Source: an uncultured Chloroflexia bacterium
GTDB lineage: Bacteria > Chloroflexota > Anaerolineae > Anaerolineales > UBA4823
Length of the DNA stretch: 64,000 nucleotides
Direction of reading: 5' to 3'
NCBI GenBank assembly: GCA_963702535.1
Contig: CAVPDG010000022.1
Location: forward strand, 31,691-95,690
Shown here: piece by piece, positions 50,059 to 61,742 of the stretch
Numbering within the stretch: position 1 is the first letter of the stretch
How the letters are laid out: each line of letters starts with the position of its first letter
Notes under the pieces: model-generated
Database searches by the model: none
Told to the model about the DNA's origin: nothing
The model's input: the letters and a program-made list of their open reading frames with translations, nothing else
Program-made: the position numbers and the translations under genes

Positions 50059-50158
50059 GGGACACGGATTTCACTGATAAACACGGATCTTATTACCATA
50101 ATGTTCTTCACTGAATTCCCTATTTTGATCCGTGCAATCGGTGTGTATCCGTGTACCC
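50059..50158. repeat. Imperfect inverted-repeat intergenic element (CACGGAT units)
   Basis: GGGACACGGAT..CACGGATC / GATCCGTG..ATCCGTGTACCC flanking an AT-rich spacer. Confidence 0.7.
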
Positions 50159-50201
50159 CAAAAAAACAAGCGGAATGGAAGAGAATTACGGGGAGCAAGT
50201 T

Positions 50202-51539
50202 ATGGACTCGGCTTATAACTGCTGGCTGGAATGCTCGCGGGGCTGCGGGCAGCGCTACCCGATCTACGAAGTGATCTACCGCTGCGAGAAGTGCGGCGGG
50301 CTGCTGGACGTGGAGCACGACCTGGAGGCTCTGCGCCGGCGGGAGGCGGGCGATTGGAAGGCGCTCTTCGATGCGCGCCTGCACACCAACGCCTGGCCCT
50401 ACGGCAGCGGGGTGTGGGGCAAGAAGGAATGGGTGCTGCCCCTGGTGGATGACGATAACGTGGTCTCGATGTACGAGGGGCAGACCAACTGCTTCTGGGC
50501 GAAGGAGCTGGGCCGCGAGCTGGGGATGAGCGACCTGTGGATCAAGCTGTGCGGCAACAGCCACACCGGCTCCTTCAAGGACCTGGGCATGACGGTGCTG
50601 GTCTCGGCGGTGATGCAGATGCGGGCGGACGGGCATCCGGTGCGGGCGGTGGCGTGCGCCTCGACGGGCGACACCTCGGCGGCGCTGGCGGCTTACGCCG
50701 CGGCGGCGGGCATCCCGGCGATCGTCTTCCTGCCCAAGGGCAAGGTATCCACGGCGCAGCTCATCCAACCGATCGCCAACGGGGCGCTGGTGCTGGCGCT
50801 GGACACCGACTTCGACGGGTGCATGCGCATCGTGCAGGAGGTGACCGCTGACCGCAGCCTGTACCTGGCGAACTCGATGAACCCGCTGCGCATGGAGGGG
50901 CAGAAGACGGTGGGGGTGGAGATCGTGCAGCAGTTCGACTGGGAAGCGCCGGACTGGATCATCATCCCGGCGGGGAACCTGGGCAACGTCTCGGCGCTGG
51001 GCAAGGGGCTGCTGATGATGCGCGAGCTGGGGCTGATCGAGCGGCTGCCGCGCATCGCCTGCGCCCAGGCGGAGCGGGCCAACCCGTTCTACCGCAGCTT
51101 CCAGGAGGGGTTCCGGTCTTACGCGCCGCTGCAGGCGGAGAAGACGCTGGCGAGCGCCATCCAGATCGGGGCGCCGGTGAGCTACGAGCGGGCGGTGAAG
51201 GTGCTGCGCCAGTTCGACGGGGTGGTGGAGCAGGCGAGCGAGGACGAGCTGGCTGAGGCTTCCGCCCGCGCCGACCGCAAAGGGCTGTTCTGCTGCCCGC
51301 AGACGGGGGTGGCGCTGGCGGCGCTGTTCAAGCTGGTGGAGCGGGGCGTGATCCGGCGCTCGGAGCGGGTGATCGTGCTCTCCACCGCCAGCGGGCTGAA
51401 GTTCACCGGCTTCAAGGTGGACTACCACGAGGGCGCCCTGGCGGGGGTGGAGGCGCGGCACGCCAACCCGCCGCTGGAGCTGGCAGCCGACGCCGGACTG
51501 GTGCGGGAGGCGATTGAGAGGGCGTTGGAAAGCGGGTAG
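50202..51539 (+). CDS. thrC: Threonine synthase (plant-like subfamily)
   Basis: [45 protein letters not shown]. Confidence 0.92.
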
Positions 51540-51601
51540 AGACAGGTGTCAGGCGCCAGGTCCGAAAAGAGAAAGGTCAGTAAATCAAGAGTCAGCGGTG
51601 A

Positions 51602-51883
51602 GAGGCGGCAACGAGGTTGAGATGGTCAAAGGTGGATTGAAAATATAGGCGTCCACGAGTGAATGCCGTCCACGAACAGGGCGCGAAGGCGCGAAAGACA
51701 TTTGCAATGGACAGATTTCGATGATCCGGGATGTCCTTCGTGGCTAGGCGCCTGCGTCCAGTACACACCGGGACCAGTACCTATGCTCTAATTGCAAACC
51801 GGATGGGAGGAAAAGTAGGGATTCGAGGGAGTGAATTTTGGAGGGGGAAGTTGGCGATTGCGAGATTCAGTGAAGCAGCGATG
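51602..51883. repeat. Diverged non-coding direct repeat, copy A
   Basis: Shares ordered blocks with 54682-54905: TTGAGATRGTCAAAGG, TCCACGAGTRAATGCCGTCCACGAA, TGATCCGGGATGT, TCTAATT, TCGAGGG, AGATTCA..CAGCGATG. Confidence 0.75.
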
Positions 51884-52016
51884 AAGCGACTTCTACTGTC
51901 CTGGAGAAGTAATTGGCGCACCCGGGAATACAGCTGACCTCAAAGTTGATGGGATTACCCAGGCAATGGTTGGGGATGCATTGCTATACAAACCGCACGC
52001 TCTCTGGATGAACGAA

Positions 52017-53300
52017 TTATGGGTTACAGTTTTCCTCCCCGGGAAAGCTATCCGGCGCGGCCTCCCATCCAGCGACATCAAGGATATCGGTAACATTCGG
52101 CATTTTGTACAATTCTCTTGTGTTTACATCAAAGATTTTAAGGCCATATTCCAATTGATCCTCAAAACACCAAAAACAAGCGATACGACTTGTCGATCCA
52201 AAAGGTTTCATACCCCCATTTCCTGCCGGAACATTTTCTAGTGAACGTACTACCTTCCCACTCGCTGGATCGATCCAGCGAATGACATCATCATCCCATG
52301 TCCCAAGAATATTGTCGTCTTCCCACCAAAATTCATCTACCTCCCCTACGGGAACGATGTTTTGATTTTCAGAGTTGGCTATCCAAAGGTTAGACCTGTC
52401 AAATGCAATGTATTTGAGAACAAAATACTTGCTATTTGGCGACCACAATATTCCATCCGGCGCATTGCCTGCTTCCGGAAGAGTTTGATATTCTACATGC
52501 TGGTTTCCATGGTAATCGGCACTATAAATTTTAAGAGTATCATTTTCGTCATAGTCGGTGTAAGCCAGCAATTGGCTGTTTGGAGACCAATCGAATTTCC
52601 ACGCCCCACCGTTTTTTGATATGAAGAAAGGCCCTTCTGAACCGTCAGTTGACATCACCGCCAGGTTTTCAACCGGATAATGATATCCTTGCCCGGTATC
52701 CTCCATCAGTTCTCCGCTGTGGATCTCCATGGCAACATAAGCTTCGGATGGAGATAACTTAACCCCAGGCCAGATCTCCATTGATTTAATCTCAGGCAGG
52801 TTTTCATGGGAGAATATCGTGCGCAGGATATTCCCGCGGAAATCCACCTCAACGATATCGGCGTTATCCAAATAGAGGTAAAATCCACACCCCTGCCGGG
52901 TCCAACCCAAAAAATGTGCATCAGAGATGTAGAGCTCGGGATTTATCGCTCTGGTTTCACCTGTGTTTACATCCTGTAGGTAGATCTCGCCGCCAAATCC
53001 CATTTGAATGATCAGGGGGTTTCCCAGCAACCCATCTGTTGCCTCTGGCCAGATCGTGGGTGTGATCGTGATTTGTTCATGAACGCCCGTAGGCGTAGGA
53101 GTATCCACGTTTCTCAAATCCAAGGTGGGTGAAACAAGGATCCAGGCAGTTGGAGTTCCATAATCGAGGGGGACCGTCGCCGATGGGCTTTTTGTCGAGA
53201 TAGGAGAGGGTTGGGAGGCAAGAGCGCATCCTCCCAACAAGAGAATCGAGCCTATCTCACAAGCAATGACTGCTAGTGGTTTTTTCCTGTTAGTTTCCAT
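52017..53300 (-). CDS. Lipoprotein with TolB/PD40-like beta-propeller (candidate immunity protein)
   Basis: ATG at 53300, lipobox LGGC, WSPNS repeats; overlaps the end of the M23 fragment. Confidence 0.75.
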   Translation of the reverse strand: METNRKKPLAVIACEIGSILLLGGCALASQPSPISTKSPSATVPLDYGTPTAWILVSPTLDLRNVDTPTPTGVHEQITITPTIWPEATDGLLGNPLIIQMGFGGEIYLQDVNTGETRAINPELYISDAHFLGWTRQGCGFYLYLDNADIVEVDFRGNILRTIFSHENLPEIKSMEIWPGVKLSPSEAYVAMEIHSGELMEDTGQGYHYPVENLAVMSTDGSEGPFFISKNGGAWKFDWSPNSQLLAYTDYDENDTLKIYSADYHGNQHVEYQTLPEAGNAPDGILWSPNSKYFVLKYIAFDRSNLWIANSENQNIVPVGEVDEFWWEDDNILGTWDDDVIRWIDPASGKVVRSLENVPAGNGGMKPFGSTSRIACFWCFEDQLEYGLKIFDVNTRELYKMPNVTDILDVAGWEAAPDSFPGEENCNP

Positions 53301-53697
53301 ATCGTTCCGGTATTGTTTTGAAATCGGAATCATAACCATATATTGCACCCAGATCCAAAAAGTATTGACCCCAATCACTCTGAGCATACCCCCAAAAATA
53401 TCTGCCTTGAAATGGATCTGAAGAGGCCAGATTAACATTGCCAGCTGTTCGGACTTCAAAGTGGAGGTGAGCAGGTACCATATCATCGCCCTTCGTGATG
53501 CCGGTTGTACCGATTATTGTATCTGAATTAACATCTTCACCAACCCCAACAAAAAATCCACTGTTGCGCTCTGTACCTAAATGTGCATAGATAGAATAGA
53601 ACTTGTTATCGTATAGCTCGTGCTCGACCATGACATAATTACCAAAATCGTCAGACCAGCCAGAAGCTACCACAACACCGGGGGCGATGGGAGGCGG
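53290..53697 (-). pseudogene. 5'-truncated M23 peptidase, probable Rhs C-terminal domain
   Basis: PIAPGVVV..FGNYVMVEH..YAHL..IGTTG..HLHFEVR; no N-terminal HxxxD motif or start codon; abuts the nucleotidyltransferase gene. Confidence 0.75.
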
Positions 53698-53708
53698 CAA
53701 TTCGAGAT

Positions 53709-54287
53709 TCAGAGAGAAGATTGTTTCAAAGCTTTGTCCAGCAGATCTCCCACATCCAACTGGTGCGCCCACTTGTATAGATAATCAAGGTCGAGGTTCC
53801 CTGCTTGCACTTCCAAGATGCCCAAGACATCACGCCATTGTCGTTCAGAAACCTCACCACCCTGACGGTACCATTCTAATTTAGCCAGCAAGGTATCTTC
53901 AGGTGTAGCTACCCATGCTTCGGCAAGCGGTTCAACAGAGAGGGTCTGTCTTCGGGCGCGGGATAATTGCTGCTCTACGAACGGTCTCGGCCTCGGAATA
54001 AATACATCAACCTTAAAAAAGCTATCCCTATGGATAATATTGAAGGCGGATTGACGGGCAACGGCCCCGACAACCATCTCCTCGTCAATATAAAACTCGC
54101 CATCTAATTCTCGAATAAAACCGGCAACATGCTCCGGGCGCATTTCGGCTACGATGTCGGAATCCTGAGTGGTCCGAACCATACCATGCAGCGTGCTGGC
54201 CAAAGAGCCGCCAATCAGGTAGCGCACCTGTAATTTTTCCAGGACGACGGTCACCCTGGCGGTGATCAACACCGGATCAAGCAGCAT
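53709..54287 (-). CDS. Nucleotidyltransferase (pol-beta superfamily, DUF6036/DUF2204-like)
   Basis: YLIGGSLAS..HG..RTTQDSD, KVDVF, EDTLLAKL, RQWRD. Confidence 0.75.
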   Translation of the reverse strand: MLLDPVLITARVTVVLEKLQVRYLIGGSLASTLHGMVRTTQDSDIVAEMRPEHVAGFIRELDGEFYIDEEMVVGAVARQSAFNIIHRDSFFKVDVFIPRPRPFVEQQLSRARRQTLSVEPLAEAWVATPEDTLLAKLEWYRQGGEVSERQWRDVLGILEVQAGNLDLDYLYKWAHQLDVGDLLDKALKQSSL

Positions 54288-54531
54288 CTTCCGCTTCTCC
54301 AAGCACTTTTCGCGCCAGGTCTGGTCCGAGCAAAAGGTCAGCCAGCCGGCGGTTCAGCTCGGCATCCGTGGCGTGGGGAAAGCGCTGGCGCAGCCCGATG
54401 AGAGCCAGCCTCCTGGCAGAAGCATTCAACCCGGACAGCATTTCCATTTTACGCCAGGAGGGAACGGTACGCAGGAGCTGCACCTGGAGGGCTTCCATGG
54501 CGGGAGAAGTGTCGGTATAAAAAGGCGGCAT
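54277..54531 (-). CDS. Small helical partner of the nucleotidyltransferase (putative toxin-antitoxin component)
   Basis: 84 aa, DTSP..Q..LLR..P..RK..GLRQRFP; overlaps the NTase gene. Confidence 0.65.
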   Translation of the reverse strand: MPPFYTDTSPAMEALQVQLLRTVPSWRKMEMLSGLNASARRLALIGLRQRFPHATDAELNRRLADLLLGPDLARKVLGEAEDAA

Positions 54532-54681
54532 AAACCTAGTATAGCACGCAGGGTATACTTTAGTGTTTATATATTCTGCCCCAGGGGAGCGAGCACCTGA
54601 ACTAAGAAGGCGCGCAAGGAGGAACGGTGTGCGCCTGGTCTTTGAAAGGTGGCGGACCTGGCTATTCGGCTTGAAAGGTGC

Positions 54682-54905
54682 GAGGTTGCAGCGATATTGA
54701 GATAGTCAAAGGCAGAGCGACAAATAGAACTCTCCACGAGTAAATGCCGTCCACGAATGATATTTACAGCGGACGCACGTCTTGATCCGGGATGTATCAG
54801 TACATACGTTCTAATTACACAGCTATTGGAAGAAAAAACAAGGACTCGAGGGTGATTTTTAGGGGAAGAAGAGGCGGAGATTAAAGATTCAACGAATCAG
54901 CGATG
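54682..54905. repeat. Diverged non-coding direct repeat, copy B
   Basis: Same blocks as copy A; both copies lie just 3' of a beta-propeller lipoprotein gene. Confidence 0.75.
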
Positions 54906-54985
54906 TGGAGATACGGGAAAGAGGCTAAGAAGGGAGATGCGCCATACTATAAGCGCGAGGGGTACAAAGGCGAACGCACAAGCCT

Positions 54986-56404
54986 CTATGGCGACTGCAT
55001 CCACCCGAATGCCTCTACATCTTCCTTGATCTGGGCCGCGAAGCCGCGTGCCAGGTCAACCAGGACCACCCGGTATCGAACAGTACTGTGATCTGCTGTG
55101 TCGGTCCGCTCCGTAACAACCAACTGCTTCCCGTCTGGCGACCAAATCGGTCTGAAGTGAATCTCGGTACTTATACAAGAATCGATGACCTGGCGGGTCT
55201 GGGTATCCACGACAACCAAATCCGAGGTTTCACTTGGAATCCAGTTTTCATAGGTCGTAAGCCAGGCTGCAAGGTAGCGCCCATCCGGCGACCAGCTAAA
55301 ATTGGTCAGCCCCGATTTTTTGTACTTGAAGAGCTCGGTCAACTGCTCCACCTGTCCATCCCTGGTAACCAGAAAGATTTCAAACGCGGGTTCACCGTTC
55401 ACGTCTTCCACATTCCCCTGCACCGCCAGGCGGGAGCCATCTGGCGACCAGACTGGCATCGGAGCCCCGAATGGTCCATCGCCGGCGAAGACCGCATCCA
55501 GGGTTGCCAACAATTTCTGTTGCTGCAAGTCCCACAGCGCGTAGGTATAAATACCGTCATCACTGAGGTAAGGATAGATCACGCGGGTCAGGGTTGGGTC
55601 AATGAGCGTGCCTCCCCAGCCGTCCCAAAAAGCATCGCGAATCCTATAGATGCCTGTGTAATCCGGTTTCAGGACCTGCCGCTGGCCGGTGAATGGGTCG
55701 AGCAGCAACAAAGTCGAAGGTTTTTGGCCGTTTCCTTCGTCTGGGTCAAGGCCAGCCAGGCTGATCACCAAACGATGATTGTCAAGCCAGCCGAGCGGAC
55801 CCAACCAGCCATCCTCCCAGGGGATGGACTCCAACCGCTGCCCGGTCGCATCGGAGACCACCAACTCCTCACCGGTGATCTTATCCGAGGCGTCAACAAG
55901 TACGCGATAATAGGCAAGCAAAGTTCGATCCGGCGACACAACATGAGAACCTTGGTTTTCAGCAGGCATGCTGGCGATTTGCCGGCTATCGCCTGTCGCC
56001 AGATCGAGAAGGAACGTGTCTCGAGCAAAACGACCGTTGAGATCCAAGCGACTATCCAGGACGAGGACGCCTTCAATGCCGGCCTCCGGCGGCAGCTCAG
56101 GGAGGAACTCCAGGCACTGAGCCGCCAGATCCCCCTGCGGGAGAATGAGCGGGCTCAAGGAAGGCGTTAGCGTCACTGCCGCAGATGGTGTGACCGCCGG
56201 CGGGGCTGTCCTGCTGGGTGTTGGGGAAGGGACAACCACAGAGGCGACAGGTCCACCATCCGTCGATAAGGCAGCGGTGCTCGTCGGGGACGCAGGTCCG
56301 GTAGGAGCAGCATCACCCGACCCGGTGGTGATTACAGCCCTTCCCGTACAAGCGATTAGAAAAGGAATGAGCACAAATGATAGGAATATCGTCCGCGTTC
56401 TCAT
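54986..56404 (-). CDS. Lipoprotein with TolB/PD40-like beta-propeller (candidate immunity protein)
   Basis: ATG at 56404, lipobox LIAC, Pro/Thr linker, three WSPDG repeats. Confidence 0.8.
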   Translation of the reverse strand: MRTRTIFLSFVLIPFLIACTGRAVITTGSGDAAPTGPASPTSTAALSTDGGPVASVVVPSPTPSRTAPPAVTPSAAVTLTPSLSPLILPQGDLAAQCLEFLPELPPEAGIEGVLVLDSRLDLNGRFARDTFLLDLATGDSRQIASMPAENQGSHVVSPDRTLLAYYRVLVDASDKITGEELVVSDATGQRLESIPWEDGWLGPLGWLDNHRLVISLAGLDPDEGNGQKPSTLLLLDPFTGQRQVLKPDYTGIYRIRDAFWDGWGGTLIDPTLTRVIYPYLSDDGIYTYALWDLQQQKLLATLDAVFAGDGPFGAPMPVWSPDGSRLAVQGNVEDVNGEPAFEIFLVTRDGQVEQLTELFKYKKSGLTNFSWSPDGRYLAAWLTTYENWIPSETSDLVVVDTQTRQVIDSCISTEIHFRPIWSPDGKQLVVTERTDTADHSTVRYRVVLVDLARGFAAQIKEDVEAFGWMQSP

Positions 56405-56414
56405 GTGAGCATCC

Positions 56415-57165
56415 TTAATGGTGCCAATCATATGCCTGACGCGGGGAGTATACATAAAAGCTGGGTAGCACAAAAAAATAAACGGGGGCCGCACTATTGT
56501 ACGGTGTGTTGGGTAGCAAACCCGATTTGAGAAAGGACTTGACCCTAGATGGGTCATTCCCCCACTGGCTTGGACCAACTCTTAGACCACGTTCTATATT
56601 TCGATCTAACGTTGTTGGGTTTAGTGCTTTATTCCCGTATATGCGGGCAGGTTCTAACAAGCTTGCCCCCAACTTTCCTTGGCCCAGGTATCCTCCGGGA
56701 TTCTTAATACCGCTTATGAAACCACTGCTATCGTTCATACTCGTACGCTCTGCTATGAAATTGAAGACGCCATTGTAACAGGATGAACTGGTGCAGGTAG
56801 GATCTCTCCAACTTCCAACATATAGACTTTGTGATACTGCGACTGAAACCCAATCCGCGCGCATAAAGCGGTTATCATCATCAATAACCCAGTTCGCCTC
56901 ATGCATTATATACAATCTAAGAAAAGTGGCAACATCCATTGTCCCATTTGAATTCCACCAAGCATCACTATAGGCTACCATAACCAGATAGTAGTTATAT
57001 ATCTCCTGACCATGTTCGGTCAGCGCGACATCAACAGTTAAACCAGACCCGCCAGAACCAGTACCGGTACCGTCATTGTTCACACCCCCGCCAGGAGTCG
57101 TACCATCATCATCATCGTCAGGACAATCGGGATCTAGACCATGTTCATAGTTACAAATGGAAATT
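56415..57165 (-). pseudogene. Orphan Rhs-type C-terminal domain of unknown family, 5'-truncated
   Basis: Reading frame begins ICNYEHGLDPDCPDDDDGTTPGGG..GTGTGSGGSG, a Cys pair plus Gly linker like that after DPSGH at 58.7 kb; low GC. Confidence 0.55.
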
Positions 57166-57204
57166 GGTAACCAACCGGGCCACCTTTGAACCAGGCTATG
57201 GCCG

Positions 57205-57392
57205 GCTCAAAGGCGCCGGTTTGAAACCCTCGACGAACTGACCCGGGCGCTGAACGAGGCTATGCAGTACTGGAATTTGCATCGACATCCGTATCATTGG
57301 CGTAAAAGACCGCCACAGCAAGTGACCATCCTCGGTGGGTTCGGGATCAGCTGAACCACAATTAGTTTATCTATCTAGCGAGAGTACCCCTA
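57205..57392 (+). mobile_element. IS630-family transposase 3' remnant and right end
   Basis: Hand translation RRFETLDELTRALNEAMQYWNLHRHPYHW; ends ATCTAGCGAGAGTACCCCTA (terminal TA). Confidence 0.6.
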
Positions 57393-57415
57393 AGGTGCAG
57401 CTTCATAGCCCAATA

Positions 57416-57982
57416 TTATGGTAGTAACCGTGCGTCGTAATATGCGGCGTAAGATTTTCCAGTCTCCTTTCCCACACCCATAATGTAAATTCTAACTTTG
57501 TCGTGTTCAAAATCCGCAAAATCTAGATCATCTAATGCCCATGAGTTATTGATATGATAATCATATCGTTCAAGCCCGGCGGGTAATGTCTCCTCTGTAG
57601 GTGCGGGCTTCTGGAGATGGATTTCAGACCACGCCTCCGTCAATTCATCATAAATAAAAGTGCGGAGTCCAAAACCCTGATTCGGGAAGACAATCGGCTC
57701 CTTCGTATGGTTGTAAACGGCAAAATGAATGAACTTGGGAGAAGGCGTAGCATCGACCGCCATCAGATAACCAAATCTGACGATGGAGATACCGGTATTC
57801 AAATCCACATCCTTCGCGTAACTCTCAACAAAGTTATCATCAACAGCAGGAGGAAAAACACTCGGTGTAGAAGATGCCAGGTAAGTGGAATGCTGTTTTT
57901 GCAGTATGGAGAAGACTCCAATCGCGATGACTACAAAAACCAAAGCGACGGCAATCTTGGAAAACCGACTAGCTATTGGCAT
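57416..57982 (-). CDS. Membrane-anchored hypothetical protein (candidate immunity protein)
   Basis: N-terminal TM helix; low GC; follows an Rhs CT. Confidence 0.65.
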   Translation of the reverse strand: MPIASRFSKIAVALVFVVIAIGVFSILQKQHSTYLASSTPSVFPPAVDDNFVESYAKDVDLNTGISIVRFGYLMAVDATPSPKFIHFAVYNHTKEPIVFPNQGFGLRTFIYDELTEAWSEIHLQKPAPTEETLPAGLERYDYHINNSWALDDLDFADFEHDKVRIYIMGVGKETGKSYAAYYDARLLP

Positions 57983-58040
57983 ATTAGCCTCTATCGTTTC
58001 TTGACGTTTCCCCTGGTGGTACTATCTTTCCGGCGAGTTA

Positions 58041-58733
58041 TCAAGGTTGATTTCTAAACCTATAACTATTACTGATATCGGTCATATGCCACGTCTCAGA
58101 TAGAGACCAGATAACTATTATCTTGAGATAAGTCGGGCGATTTCTTTCGCCGTAGAAGGTGACTGTGGTAACGCGATGACCTGGAAAATCATCAAACTCT
58201 CCCAAACTGATTTCATGCCGGGTTTCATCGACAGTGGCAACATTCAGCATTGTTCCACCCCATGGTTTTACGGGAACAGGCATATTCTTAGGGTAATCGT
58301 AATCTTCATAGATTGTTATCTGTACTCCATTTTGATAGTAGTCTATGTTATATCTGGCATTGTAGTTTAGTACAACACCATTGAATTGATGTTGTTTTGT
58401 TTCCCCGTCAGCATATAGCCCACCGGCATAAAACACATTGGGAGATCCGCCTCCCTTACATTGACCTCCGAGATATGGACCCAAGTCGCAAGGCTCTCCA
58501 ATATGTGGAGTATCTGGGATATTCTCCTAGGTGCGGGCTGGGATTGTCGGCAACTGTGGAAAAAATAGTGTCGGCTGTTCGTTATTGGGAAGAATTACCA
58601 CTGGGATTGTATCGTTATTACCGCTCCCGTTGCTCCCCGTGTCACTCGTTCCTCCCCCTGTATCACCGGGCCAGCAATTGTATCCGTCTTCCTCGCAATT
58701 CCTGTGGCCGGAGGGATCAATATATTTTAAGGG
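58041..58733 (-). pseudogene. Orphan Rhs core end plus C-terminal domain with an in-frame TAG
   Basis: PLKYIDPSGH (Rhs PxxxxDPxG motif); ORFs 58527..58766 and 58041..58484 share a frame and are separated by one TAG at 58527-58529. Confidence 0.8.
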
Positions 58734-58744
58734 AGTACCCTGAA

Positions 58745-59135
58745 CAAGAAACACCCAACAAGTCACAGGATAGCGGATTGATCCGAGTGACTCATCCCCA
58801 TCATCCCTTGTACAATCAAGTTATTAAGGTTCTGCGCCGGGCGGGCAACCTGGCTTACCCCGAGCCCTGTTACCTGATCGAGCTGCCCGATCAAACCCGG
58901 GCCGAGCTGCCCTGTTCCTGGGCAATCCCGGCCGTTCCAGGGGAATACTCACTGCTCTGTTCCACACCGGCGCCGGAACTGTGGGCTGGGGTCGTCGAAT
59001 ACCTGGCCCTAGCCCATCTGGTTCAAGCCATATTGGCTCCGGCCATGGAGGAAAAGGCTAATGAGCGTCTCTCCTTTGATTGTACATCCAAACCCGCCCG
59101 AACAGAACAGTCCAGCGCCACCTTGGGAACAGTTC
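58745..59135 (+). mobile_element. Mobile-element remnant with a DUF5372/Y4bD-like small ORF
   Basis: RVTHPHHPLYNQ..LPDQTRAELPCSW resembles the family motif; truncates the Rhs core. Confidence 0.5.
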
Positions 59136-59137
59136 CC

Positions 59138-59359
59138 GGCGGAACGCGATCTCCGCATGGTCAAGCTGAAACAGAAAGTGTCTGGCTGTTTTCGCTCAAC
59201 AGAGGGCGCCAGAGTATTTTGCCAAATCCGCAGCTACGTCTCAACAGCCCGTAAAAACGGCCAGCCGGTACTGGATGTGCTGCAATTGGCTTTGACTAGA
59301 TCGCCTTATGTTCCTCCTATTCTTCAGGCTCGGTTGAGTTCACCAGCCTGAGCAGTTAC
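59138..59359 (+). mobile_element. IS66-family transposase 3' remnant with right end
   Basis: [31 protein letters not shown]; terminal CTGAGCAGTTAC. Confidence 0.85.
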
Positions 59360-59617
59360 TACAATTCTTACAATCTGTATCGCTAGATTAGGGAGATTAG
59401 TAGGTAAATGCCCCGTTGGATCAGAGTAAGATAATATACAAAATTTCACAAGAAACGTCAATAGAGATTTGGCTAGGGATTCTGCAGAATCCCATTCTTA
59501 TCCCTTTCCGCTACGGATTTCACCACTCATCCCGGCTATTCGTACAATCAGCATGGTTAAGTTTGTTATAATTCCGATAACAACTATCCCTTTTACCGTT
59601 ATGGAGATTTCCTTCCA

Positions 59618-60482
59618 ATGGCTACGCAACCACGCAAGATCAAGCAAATCATCGAGCCGCAGATGGTGATCGAGGGGGCGGGGGTGCTGCTGCGCCGCTC
59701 ATTCGGTCCCAGCCGGCTCAACCTGTTCGACCCCTTCCTGCTCTTCGACCATTTCGCCTTCAACGACCCACGCGAGGGACCGATCCGCGGCTTTCCCACC
59801 CACCCGCACCGCGGCATCGAGACGGTGACCTACATGCTGGAGGGCAACGTGCGCCACCGCGATTCGCTGGGCAATGCGGGGGTGATCGGGGCGGGCGACG
59901 CGCAGTGGATGACCAGCGGCAGGGGCATCCTGCACGAGGAGATGCCGCAGCGCGGACCGAACGGCGTGATCTATGGCTTCCAGCTCTGGGTCAACCTGCC
60001 CAGGGCGAAGAAGATGAGCCAGCCGCGCTACCAGGAGATCAGCGCCAAGGATATCCCCGCCGTCGAGAAAGACGGCGCCTGCATCCGCCTGGTGGCGGGG
60101 GACTACGCCGGCGTGCGCGGACCGGTGACGGAGATCGCCGCCAACCCGGTGTACATGGATGTGACCCTGGAGCCGGGGGCTGTGGTGAGCCTGCCGGCGC
60201 CGGCGGGGCACGCTGCCATCGCTTACCTGTTCGAGGGAGAGGCGCTGTTCGGCGCAGAAGGCGAGGAGCAGCACGTGGTCCTCCGTGCACATGCTTGCCT
60301 TCGAGGATGGAGACCAGGTGCGCGCCCAGGCGGCGCCCGGTGCGCCGGCGCGCTTCATGCTGATGGCGGGGGCGCCGTTCAACGAGCCGGTGGTGCCCTA
60401 CGGACCGTTCGTGATGAACACGCAGGAGGAGATCCAGCAGGCGCTGATGGATTTGCGCAACGGGACATTCGTCCAGAATTGA
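59618..60482 (+). CDS. Pirin family protein; frameshift near 60285
   Basis: DPFLLFDH, HPHRGIETVTY, GILHEE, FQLWVNLP; EPVVPYGPFVMNT in ORF 60285..60482. Confidence 0.92.
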
Positions 60483-60485
60483 CCC

Positions 60486-60513
60486 GTAGGGGCGGAGGAC
60501 CATCCGCCCCTAC
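60486..60513. repeat. REP-like palindrome (GTAG type)
   Basis: GTAGGGGCGGA-N6-TCCGCCCCTAC. Confidence 0.6.
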
Positions 60514-60557
60514 TATCGACCCCCACCCCGGCCCTCGAAGCGGGGGAGGGAAAATCA

Positions 60558-60609
60558 AACGAAAAAAGGGCACTTTGGCGGCTTCACCGCCAAAGTGCCT
60601 TTTTTCGTT
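60558..60609. terminator. Bidirectional intrinsic terminator
   Basis: AAAAAAGGGCACTTTGGCGG-CTTCA-CCGCCAAAGTGCCTTTTTT between convergent genes. Confidence 0.85.
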
Positions 60610-60663
60610 ATGCATACCCGTGCAAAATTACAAGGAAAGCAAAAGGGAAACAGCCACATTAAT

Positions 60664-61742
60664 TTACACGGATAGGCGATTGAAGTCGCGCAAGATGCGG
60701 CGCAGGGGCTCATGGGGTAAACTGTGGACGGTGAGACCGTTCCGCCCGGTCATGGTCTCGGCGGCGACCAGGGCATTGATGATGGCTTCCTCCACAGCGT
60801 AGATGGCGGCGCCGAAGAGGGGGTCCATGTGGTCGTTGGGTAAGGCTTGCAGGCAGGCGAGGTCCGCCGACGGGGCGGGCGGCGCCGGGGTTGGCGGTGG
60901 AGAAGGCGAGGAAGATATCCCCCGAGCCGTTGCCGGACATGCCGCCGGTGCGCGCCATGCCCAGGGACCCGCGCCGGGCGATGCGCTTGAGCTGGTGCGG
61001 CAGGAGAGGCGCATCGGTGGCGATGACCAGGATGAGCGAGCCCTGCTCGACATTGGGATTCTCGCCGCTGGTAAAGGGGGCGTCCTCGGTCAGATAATGC
61101 CCCACCGGCACGCCGGAGATGGTGAGCTGGTAGCGGCGCCCGAAGTTTGCCTGGGCGAGCACGCCCACGGTGTAGCCGCCATCCTTCTCGGCGAGACGGC
61201 GGGAGGCTGTGCCTGTACCCCCTTTGAACTCGTAAGCAGATCATGCCCGTGCCGCCGCCGACGTTGCCTTCGGCGAGCGCGCCGCCATGCGCTTCCTGCA
61301 GAGCCTGCCAGGCGTGCTCCGGCTGGATGTGGAAGCCGTGCATGTCGTTGAGCCAGCCGTCGGCGGTCTCGCCCACCACCGGGCAGGACCAGGGCTGGAA
61401 GAGGGCTTCGTGCTCGATCTGCCAGTGGATGATGGCGTCGCGCACGACGCCGACGCTGTGGGTGTTGGTGAGACCGATGGGACCTTCCAGGAAGCCGCTC
61501 TCCTCCACCCAGGCGGTGCCGGTGACCTCGCCGTTGCCGTTGAGGGCGAACCAGCCGGCGCAAACAGGGTCGTGGTCGTCTATCCCGCGGGGGTGGATGA
61601 CGGTGACGCCGGTGCGGATGGAGTCGCCGCGGATGACGGTGGCATAACCGACCTGGACGCCTGCCACGTCGGTGATGGCGTTACAAGGACCGGGCATGCC
61701 TTCGAAGAGGATGCCGAGGTCACGAGCGCGGGGTTTGGACAT
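60664..61742 (-). CDS. dmpA: DmpA/P1 (S58) aminopeptidase; two frameshifts
   Basis: NAITDVAGV.VG, NGNGE, TNTHSVG, EGNVGGGTGM, GSLILVIATDAPL, GSGDIFLAFST, EEAIINAL. Confidence 0.88.

Follow-up and report, generated by a model that had tools for sequence, protein, structure and literature searches.

The window analysed here is a 64,000-nucleotide stretch of an uncultured Chloroflexia bacterium known from a metagenome-assembled genome (MAG), G000 (GenBank assembly GCA_963702535.1; contig CAVPDG010000022.1, here C22, positions 31691-95690; other C-numbers likewise denote contigs of G000). It contains an island of about 8 kb in which C-terminal tips (CTs) of Rhs-type polymorphic toxins, cut loose from their carrier protein, are each followed by the gene of an exported partner. 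The island is bounded by a threonine-synthase-like gene (50151-51539, plus strand) and a pirin gene (59618-60802, plus strand), and its guanine-plus-cytosine (GC) content is approximately 0.43-0.58 in most 500-bp segments of 51750-59500, compared with 0.62-0.72 in most flanking segments. From high to low coordinates, the minus strand carries a junction scrap (CT0), CT1, a membrane-anchored partner, CT2, a β-propeller gene (propeller 2), an insert of two open reading frames (ORFs), an M23 peptidase fragment, and a second propeller gene (propeller 3). An initial annotation of this DNA had described three CT-plus-partner pairs on the minus strand in a region of lower GC; ORF and frame-translation checks place all three pairs as described, and the comparison with the flanks confirms the compositional difference. 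The partner genes start between 11 nt inside the tip frame and 58 nt past the tip stop codon. The arrangement is not due to chance: the same CT-partner pairs are met again at other loci, both within this genome and beyond it.

What identifies the tips as Rhs-derived? Release of the tip by self-cleavage at a DPxGH motif is a property of the Rhs family. This core-end motif survives in the window as LKYIDPSGH in CT1 and LSYSDPTGH in CT0; at most 9 core residues are left, and the tips are therefore detached cassettes and not parts of an Rhs gene. None of the 12 TIGR03696 core-end matches in the genome, which lie on C24, C9, C4, and C16, and none of its 24 RHS_repeat matches is found on C22. The Rhs origin that the initial annotation proposed is established by the junction motifs in the window, by paralogs of the tips that stand behind Rhs cores, and by one full-length Rhs protein that ends in M23. 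The latter, the only full-length Rhs ORF found, occupies C9:9520-16605 (L011), is 2361 amino acids (aa) from stop to stop, and comprises a SpvB domain, RHS repeats, a KYIDPTGH junction, a Cys and Gly-rich linker, and an M23 domain with HAGVD and HLH motifs; a gene for a PD40 lipoprotein starts 1 nt past its stop codon. Its first ~115 residues include neither a Met nor any obvious signal peptide, which makes the true start uncertain. On C4, another Rhs-M23 tip, the third, has both zinc motifs and is followed by a different lipoprotein, and M23 follows the core motif at three loci of this genome. The search for full-length parents, which the initial annotation had suggested, was therefore successful for the M23 tip; for CT2 the best carrier in the genome is a 325-aa core-plus-tip ORF on C24, and no full-length Rhs parent bearing a CT1-type tip was found in the genome.

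All of the tips in the island are inactivated. The M23 fragment (53692-53290, minus strand) scores 51 bits against PF01551 (cut-off 28.7) over profile positions 19-92 of 96. M23 peptidases bind zinc through HxxxD and HxH motifs, and the fragment possesses HxH (AHLHFE) and lacks HxxxD. The DNA of 52019-53692 is a 96.4% copy of C16:150216-151897, which itself lies behind a TIGR03696 core match and in which the M23 frame runs upstream through YHMAVDGG, the HxxxD site, and RRYVDPTGH to the Rhs core. Homology to this copy ends at 53692, and the window fragment therefore keeps HxH and loses HxxxD; in place of the 5' half of the M23 tip are the two overlapping ORFs of the insert (84 and 197 aa; 53709-54531, minus strand). 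The C16 copy differs from the window by 8 indels, 7 of them in its propeller gene, that break both C16 genes.

CT1 (58731-58044, minus strand), which opens with LKYIDPSGH, is cut at its 5' end by the 416-bp remnant of a serine-recombinase element (58732-59147, plus strand) and is split by a single in-frame TAG (58529-58527), which the initial annotation had not noted. The stop codon falls between the proximal part (58530-58731), consisting of the junction, a Cys linker, and a linker rich in Gly, Ser, Thr, and Asn, and a 161-aa distal domain (58041-58526) that is predicted to be all-beta. The relative P0001, 96% identical to CT1, has Trp where CT1 has the TAG. An alternative genetic code that would read through the TAG was considered and rejected, as it is a lone stop and the close relative has a TGG-encoded Trp at that position. 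The CT2 frame is open from 57206 to 56418, and homology to its relatives starts at 'SICNY' (~57161), so that the tip proper, with its Cys linker, Gly-rich linker, and ~200-aa 'GWWN' domain, occupies 56415-57161 (minus strand). This homology begins three residues past the KYIDPTGHD site of the 60%-identical relative P0006 and stops upstream of there; CT2 is therefore without a DPxGH motif and without Rhs core. The 254-bp spacer 5' of CT2 (57162-57415) contains no recognisable element and has no other copy in the genome. The notion that a different element cuts the 5' end of each CT thus applies to CT1, where it is a recombinase element and not an insertion sequence (IS), and to M23, where it is the two-ORF insert, and does not apply to CT2. 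Because all of its tips are inactivated, the island is not an active system here, and the working envelope-targeting system that the initial annotation envisaged in the window did not hold up: the toxin side is dead.

The partner genes have fared differently from the tips. Propeller 2 (56404-54986, minus strand) is a 472-aa lipoprotein with the lipobox LIAC, a Pro/Thr/Ser-rich linker, and a PD40 match (PF07676) of 52.4 bits against a cut-off of 20.9. Propeller 3 (53300-52017, minus strand) is a 427-aa lipoprotein with the lipobox LGGC, and its start, an ATG, overlaps the last 11 nt of the M23 frame. It has no Pfam match of its own and is recognised as PD40-like through its relatives: it is 23% identical over 359 aa (E 1e-7) to the lipoprotein encoded after the full-length C9 Rhs-M23, which has a PD40 match of 35.1 bits, and the two-sequence profile of propeller 3 and the C9 partner gives an hhalign probability of 97.5% (E 6.4e-12) against the propeller-2 family. 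The propellers also give weak DPPIV_N matches in Pfam. Both propeller ORFs are intact and full length compared with their relatives, although they stand beside truncated tips. The CT1 partner (57982-57416, minus strand) is a protein of 188 aa with one strongly hydrophobic N-terminal segment (3.26, residues 10-24) and no lipobox. All three partners, by their lipoboxes or anchor helix, are predicted to be extracytoplasmic, as had been stated from the outset. Of 8000 candidates scored, 89 belong to the propeller-2 family at E≤1e-10, most of them ~430-500 aa and annotated in their sources as hypothetical or as WD40/PD40 proteins. The C24 propeller is 96% identical to C16:246415-247806.

The pairing of CT2 with its propeller is conserved. 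All three CT2-type sequences in this genome (in the window, on C24, and as a 72-aa fragment at C16:247815-248018) directly precede propeller-2-type genes. A scan of other genomes, one per species, with a 13-sequence CT2 alignment confirmed four loci, and the order of tip then propeller is found at three of these four (L030, L031, and L032). L030, in a Chloroflexia MAG, consists of a 509-aa Rhs fragment that ends in RYNDPSGH and a CT2-type domain, and of a downstream gene for a lipoprotein propeller of 456 aa; the same MAG has a frameshifted version of this pair (L032), and an Anaerolineales MAG has a CT2-type tip followed by a propeller (L031). The window and L031 tips are 30% identical (E 6e-14) and their propellers 36% identical over 425 aa (E 3e-81); between C24 and L030 the tips are 36% (E 2e-56) and the propellers 41% identical (E 6e-80); between the window and C24 the tips are 29% identical over 97 aa and the propellers 33%. 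Judged by these alignments, the CT2-type tips and the propellers co-diverge, with the nearest relatives the same for both, and such matching divergence is the pattern expected of specific binding partners. In other Chloroflexota MAGs, too, the CT2 family has the propeller as its conserved partner (L030-L032).

Could the adjacency nevertheless be incidental, the propellers being ordinary envelope proteins, TolB-like or linked to peptidases, that happen to lie amid mobile DNA and Rhs debris? Genomes of the class do hold PD40 lipoproteins without Rhs neighbours, the island is rich in element fragments, and a propeller-2 paralog at C10:138085-139629 (L018), 29% identical, has no adjoining CT2 match; this paralog could be either a housekeeping ancestor or an immunity gene left as an orphan. 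However, the order recurs in all three cases in this genome and at three of the four loci elsewhere, with matching divergence, and the same order follows the full-length Rhs-M23 of C9. Like TolB, the propellers here are of the PD40 type and belong to the envelope, but they score only 29.7 and 17.7 bits against the TolB equivalog TIGR02800 (cut-off 343.15) and, unlike TolB, they are tethered lipoproteins beside toxin tips. We consider incidental adjacency very improbable.

What might the CT2 tip do? Neither CT1 nor CT2 is matched by any Pfam or NCBIfam model, which agrees with the initial description of two unrecognised CT domains. A two-sequence profile (window and C24), searched against 1.84 billion representatives, places CT2 in a family of 109 representative clusters at E≤1e-3 (32 at ≤1e-10 and 5 at ≤1e-30), two of which are this genome's own. 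A DPxG motif lies upstream of the domain in 61 of the 109, at a median of 26 residues before it, and many of the other 48 members begin inside the domain. In a Pfam scan of 46 of the 109, RHS repeats were found in two members, a Hint/intein module in one, and kinase, FHA, SH3_3, and CBM_4_9 domains in one each; 39 had no match at all, and no Pfam family covers the CT2 domain itself in any of the 46. Homologs of CT2, by these DPxG and RHS-repeat counts, and of the M23 tip, by its three loci, do therefore occur on Rhs proteins, a point on which the initial annotation had staked its reading. An alignment of 83 sequences (81 of the 109 matches, the window, and C24) yields the signature Y..Y......GWWN....G.(F/L)T.E.F.G..I..E..G ... 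C....C.NG.FNF ... WGN, in which W28, W29, F40, E48, C83, C88, and N94 are near-invariant. When the family profile was compared with PDB sequences, its N-terminal flank matched the core ends of solved Rhs, TcC, and teneurin proteins (best E 5.6e-6), and this flank was the only part matched, the domain itself being without a match.

The AlphaFold2 model of CT2 built on the 83-sequence alignment is confident, with a predicted local distance difference test score (pLDDT) of 91.7 and a predicted template modelling score (pTM) of 0.89. A scan of this model with VIA-align, which is independent of Foldseek, covered 48,161 chains and returned 16 with Z≥2. The top neighbours are SleB catalytic domains, 4f55_A (Z 5.7, root-mean-square deviation 4.4, 111 aligned residues) and 4fet_A (Z 5.4, root-mean-square deviation 3.8, 104 aligned), followed in third to fifth place by MltG/YceG lytic transglycosylases (Z 3.0, 2.6, and 2.5). 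In the model and the alignment, the near-invariant Glu48 sits at a helix end and the Cys pair is conserved. Several results speak against assigning CT2 to the SleB type on this basis. The likeness to SleB is weak, since Z 5.7 is below 8, the level under which a common structural arrangement is possible according to the tool; the Foldseek search that the initial annotation had proposed for CT2 was run and returned nothing at E≤0.001 in PDB and BFVD, SleB-named phage proteins appearing only among its non-significant rows; the family profile had an hhalign probability of 0.4% against one Hydrolase_2 member; and PF07486 (SleB/Hydrolase_2) matches nothing in this genome. ESM Atlas scores of 0.79 for CT2 serve as leads only.

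These results leave room for CT2 to be a different type of toxin, either non-enzymatic or directed, for example, at lipid II, teichoic acids, or the membrane, with its SleB/MltG likeness reflecting no more than a common helical arrangement; a Z of 5.7 lies in the range that the tool flags for such cases, and neither Foldseek nor sequence profiles speak for SleB. Against this, the best five structural rows are all peptidoglycan lytic transglycosylases while unrelated chains do not exceed Z 2.4, the near-invariant Glu at a helix end and the Cys pair fit an exported glycan-cleaving enzyme, and the partner is exported. We regard another toxin kind as a doubtful but serious contender. A glycan-strand-cleaving wall enzyme is favoured, by a modest measure, because of the model's near-invariant helix-end Glu, because a conserved Cys pair suits a protein that is exported, and because the partner is exported; it is a best guess and not a finding, because Z is below 8, Foldseek lends no support, and there is no Hydrolase_2 sequence match.

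How would such a system work, and why would intact partner genes remain beside dead tips? From the intact copies, a large exported Rhs protein would carry a variable tip behind DPxGH, a Cys pair, and a flexible Gly-rich linker. The tips would act on the cell envelope from outside, harming the peptidoglycan of cells that lack the matching partner: the M23 tip would cut peptidoglycan cross-links, and the CT2 'GWWN' tip would probably cut the glycan strand in the manner of SleB/MltG lytic transglycosylases. The partner, encoded within a few bases of the tip, would be held at the outer face of the membrane, in the case of the M23 and CT2 partners as a lipoprotein with a long Pro/Thr/Ser tether bearing a PD40 β-propeller. 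Most likely, the propeller attaches to the tip and shuts off the active site, which would protect the producer and its kin, and the propeller and anchor genes of the window would have been kept as stand-alone immunity against the toxins of relatives. The region would then be what is left of a polymorphic Rhs toxin system, an orphan island in decay whose tips are inactivated and whose cognate protection genes are intact, and this is the explanation that we consider probable.

The main competing role for the exported partners would be that of accessory factors of the toxin, providing a receptor or docking site, help with folding or activation, or a release route across the wall. Tight linkage and co-divergence fit any specific binding partner, PD40 propellers are often scaffolds, the propeller domain of ~350 aa is far larger than known propeller-like inhibitors, and the initial annotation itself had left a receptor possible. 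However, intact partners beside dead tips are to be expected of immunity genes and not of helpers of a lost toxin, and wall-hydrolase effectors that are already described pair with exported inhibitors, some of them propeller-like (PMC3391265, PMC10933484). An accessory role seems unlikely to us.

A number of observations weigh against the partners being immunity proteins in a decayed Rhs island, or narrow the base on which that explanation stands. The CT2-type tip at L033, in a Gammaproteobacteria MAG (24% identity), has no propeller downstream, and the C10 propeller has no CT2 match next to it. A search of 400 sampled genomes of the phylum with the CT2 profile was negative, and among 400 other genomes of the phylum there was no match spanning both an Rhs junction and M23, the M23-propeller pairing being found only in this genome. 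Propeller-3 relatives occur in 3 of 200 other genomes of the class, and these are weak and none adjoins Rhs. An exported or membrane partner follows 8 of 10 uninterrupted Rhs tips elsewhere in the genome, compared with 144 of 400 random long-ORF ends, by a crude test of N-terminal hydrophobicity; this count is suggestive at most, because the paralogs are not independent. CT1 has only two near-length relatives among 5.8 billion clusters, no longer forms being found, and the model of its distal domain, built from three sequences, has a pLDDT of 50.2 and is not usable. Finally, G000 is 84.8% complete and 4% contaminated, and some of the frameshifts in paralogs may be assembly errors.

The locus resembles arrangements that are already known. 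In the polymorphic-toxin catalogue of Zhang et al. (2012; PMC3482391), the SpvB-type (TcdB/TcaC-like) Rhs class is listed for Chloroflexi, and the wall-acting tips include NlpC/P60, L,D-peptidase, and glucosaminidase domains; the words 'M23' and 'transglycosylase' are absent from 300,000 characters of the catalogue's text. Like the orphan Rhs/CDI tip-plus-immunity arrays described there, the island has variable tips behind DPxG, each with its own partner gene, and several tip fragments in a row at lower GC with the full-length parent elsewhere in the genome. Unlike those arrays, it has no RHS repeat or core on its contig, all of its tips are inactivated, and its partners are exported, two of them being of ~430-470 aa.

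The reading given in the initial annotation is correct for the most part, but it claims too much novelty. It had considered extracytoplasmic immunity an oddity, which it is not: such immunity is the rule for wall-targeting effectors. The view of the propeller as a novel immunity scaffold was likewise overstated, as propeller-like inhibitors are in print. Tsi1 is a partial propeller most like that of DPP IV (PMC3391265), the X-Tfi inhibitor XAC2610 is propeller-like, together with PliI (PMC10933484), and Tsi1 and X-Tfi block the active site of their effector with an inserted loop (PMC3391265, PMC10933484). The type VI pair Tse1-Tsi1 and the Xanthomonas type IV pair X-Tfe/X-Tfi XAC2609-XAC2610 share with our locus a wall-degrading effector and an exported propeller-like partner, and the weak DPPIV_N matches of the propellers recall the DPP IV likeness noted for Tsi1. 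Delivery would here be by Rhs and not by type VI or type IV machines, and the propellers consist of repeated PD40 units over ~350 aa on a long tether, in contrast to small partial propellers; inhibition by them is something that we infer. Wall-cleaving domains, either SleB-like or M23, are used by two other groups of antibacterial effectors: the type VI effector T6EC3, which is SleB-like, needs one catalytic Glu and has an immunity protein with a predicted periplasmic signal (PMC11148199), and among the Acinetobacter type VI effectors Tpe4, 14, 18, 24, and 29 carry M23, Tpe29 also having Hydrolase_2 (PMC6833914). Unlike the tips discussed here, these are type VI cargo in Proteobacteria and not Rhs tips, and CT2 has no Hydrolase_2 sequence match. 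A search of the literature on Rhs or polymorphic toxins together with Chloroflexi, or on M23 together with immunity, found no paper describing such systems.

The Chloroflexota are abundant in the environment and have an unusual envelope. Together with its intact paralogs, the locus suggests that the Rhs toxins of this lineage are aimed at the wall from outside and that their partners form a dedicated family of tethered propeller lipoproteins. What is new here is the Rhs carrier in Chloroflexota, the unnamed GWWN family, and the large tethered PD40 propellers as a conserved partner. This extends a known theme and opens no new one, since it is already established that effectors aimed at the wall have exported immunity proteins, some even propeller-like. 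It does provide testable material: a GWWN tip family of 109 clusters that has no name in Pfam, but a confident model and a single Glu as the candidate catalytic residue; the conserved pairing of tip and propeller; and a site-specific element that would land in the Rhs core end.

The element in question is represented in the window by the 416 bp that cut CT1. These are a 98.3% copy of the CT-proximal element end at C16:250129-250544, the full element there (C16:250129-~252833; L014) comprising a DUF5372-like ORF and a large serine recombinase whose ORF contains the Pfam domains Resolvase, Recombinase, and Zn_ribbon_recom. The C16 element sits exactly within the conserved Rhs core-end codons, parting NNP from xRFVDPTGH; the core side of the junction reads ...AAT AAC CC|A... 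and the tip side ...ACT CC|T ATC CGG TTT GTT GAT CCT ACG GGC CAT. In the window, the tip-side 416 bp stand before another tip, CT1, than on C16, and the foreign CT2-family protein P0023 starts with the same element-derived peptide, ...RYPVTRWV...VDPTGH. The sequences at these junctions suggest that the element may insert site-specifically into Rhs junctions. Recombinase homologs were found in 6 of 200 other genomes, with no Rhs junction in the flanks examined. We put forward tentatively, as one possibility, that PD40 propeller lipoproteins on long tethers are an unrecognised class of immunity proteins against wall-degrading Rhs tips in Chloroflexota, that 'GWWN' is a new lytic-transglycosylase-like toxin, and that a serine-recombinase element inserts precisely at NNP | xxxDPxGH, uncoupling tips from the Rhs carrier and possibly shuffling them.

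The linker design of CT1 is common to the C9 Rhs protein and CT2. ESM Atlas gave no usable match for its distal domain, and its partner has no family match in the libraries scanned and no paralog in the genome. L034, a supposed CT1 relative and the one locus that a metagenome scan gave, was rejected: the pattern matched there by chance, on the strand opposite to a long ORF that is unrelated.

Other Rhs tips are scattered through the genome. C24 (371000-382000; L012) has a series of four consecutive Rhs core-plus-tip modules, all of which have their own partner, exported or in the membrane; the tip of one of them is Gly/Ala-rich and membrane-like. The tip behind the C16 element (C16:249444-250217; L014:3945-4718, minus strand) has a HEFGH zincin-like motif and no Pfam match, and has the gene of a 186-aa lipoprotein (LLSSGC) after it. 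Two genomes of the same order encode small multi-helix membrane proteins after their Rhs tips.

A fourth junction remnant, CT0, lies beyond the range of the initial annotation (52017-58733). At 59435-59362 it reads LSYSDPTGHLPTNLPNL, and its open frame (59327-59497, minus strand) ends in ...ILSYSDPTGHLPTNLPNLAIQIVRIVV..., with only ~37 codons kept past the motif. The DNA of 59362-59435 is 89% identical to C24:372771-372844, where core and CT meet in an Rhs ORF of 335 aa. Next to it is the weak C-terminal tail of an IS66-like transposase (59150-59351, plus strand), which matches PF03050 below the cut-off (E 0.0014, 18.6 bits against 23.1; profile positions 258-283 of 284) and is 52% identical over 63 aa to C7:51287-51469.

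The two-ORF insert that replaces the 5' half of the M23 tip has no match in Pfam, NCBIfam, PADLOC, or PDB sequences, and its longer ORF has a 27%-identical paralog on C25. A motif had raised the idea that the insert is a nucleotidyltransferase-type toxin-antitoxin pair; this was dropped, as none of the same four libraries supports it. Just 3' of both propeller genes is a dispersed repeat of ~180-250 bp, at 54599-54775 after propeller 2 and at 51597-51848 after propeller 3, with further copies at C4:552038-552349, C16:245976-246144, and C4:364330-364472; on C4 it also lies just 5' of an RHS-repeat ORF. Neither the repeat nor any other part of 51400-59700 has an Rfam match. Within the repeat, GGAGG comes after a GAAC-N4-GTTC-like palindrome that only the C4 copy has in perfect form, a combination that we take to resemble a Gram-positive SOS box with a ribosome site.

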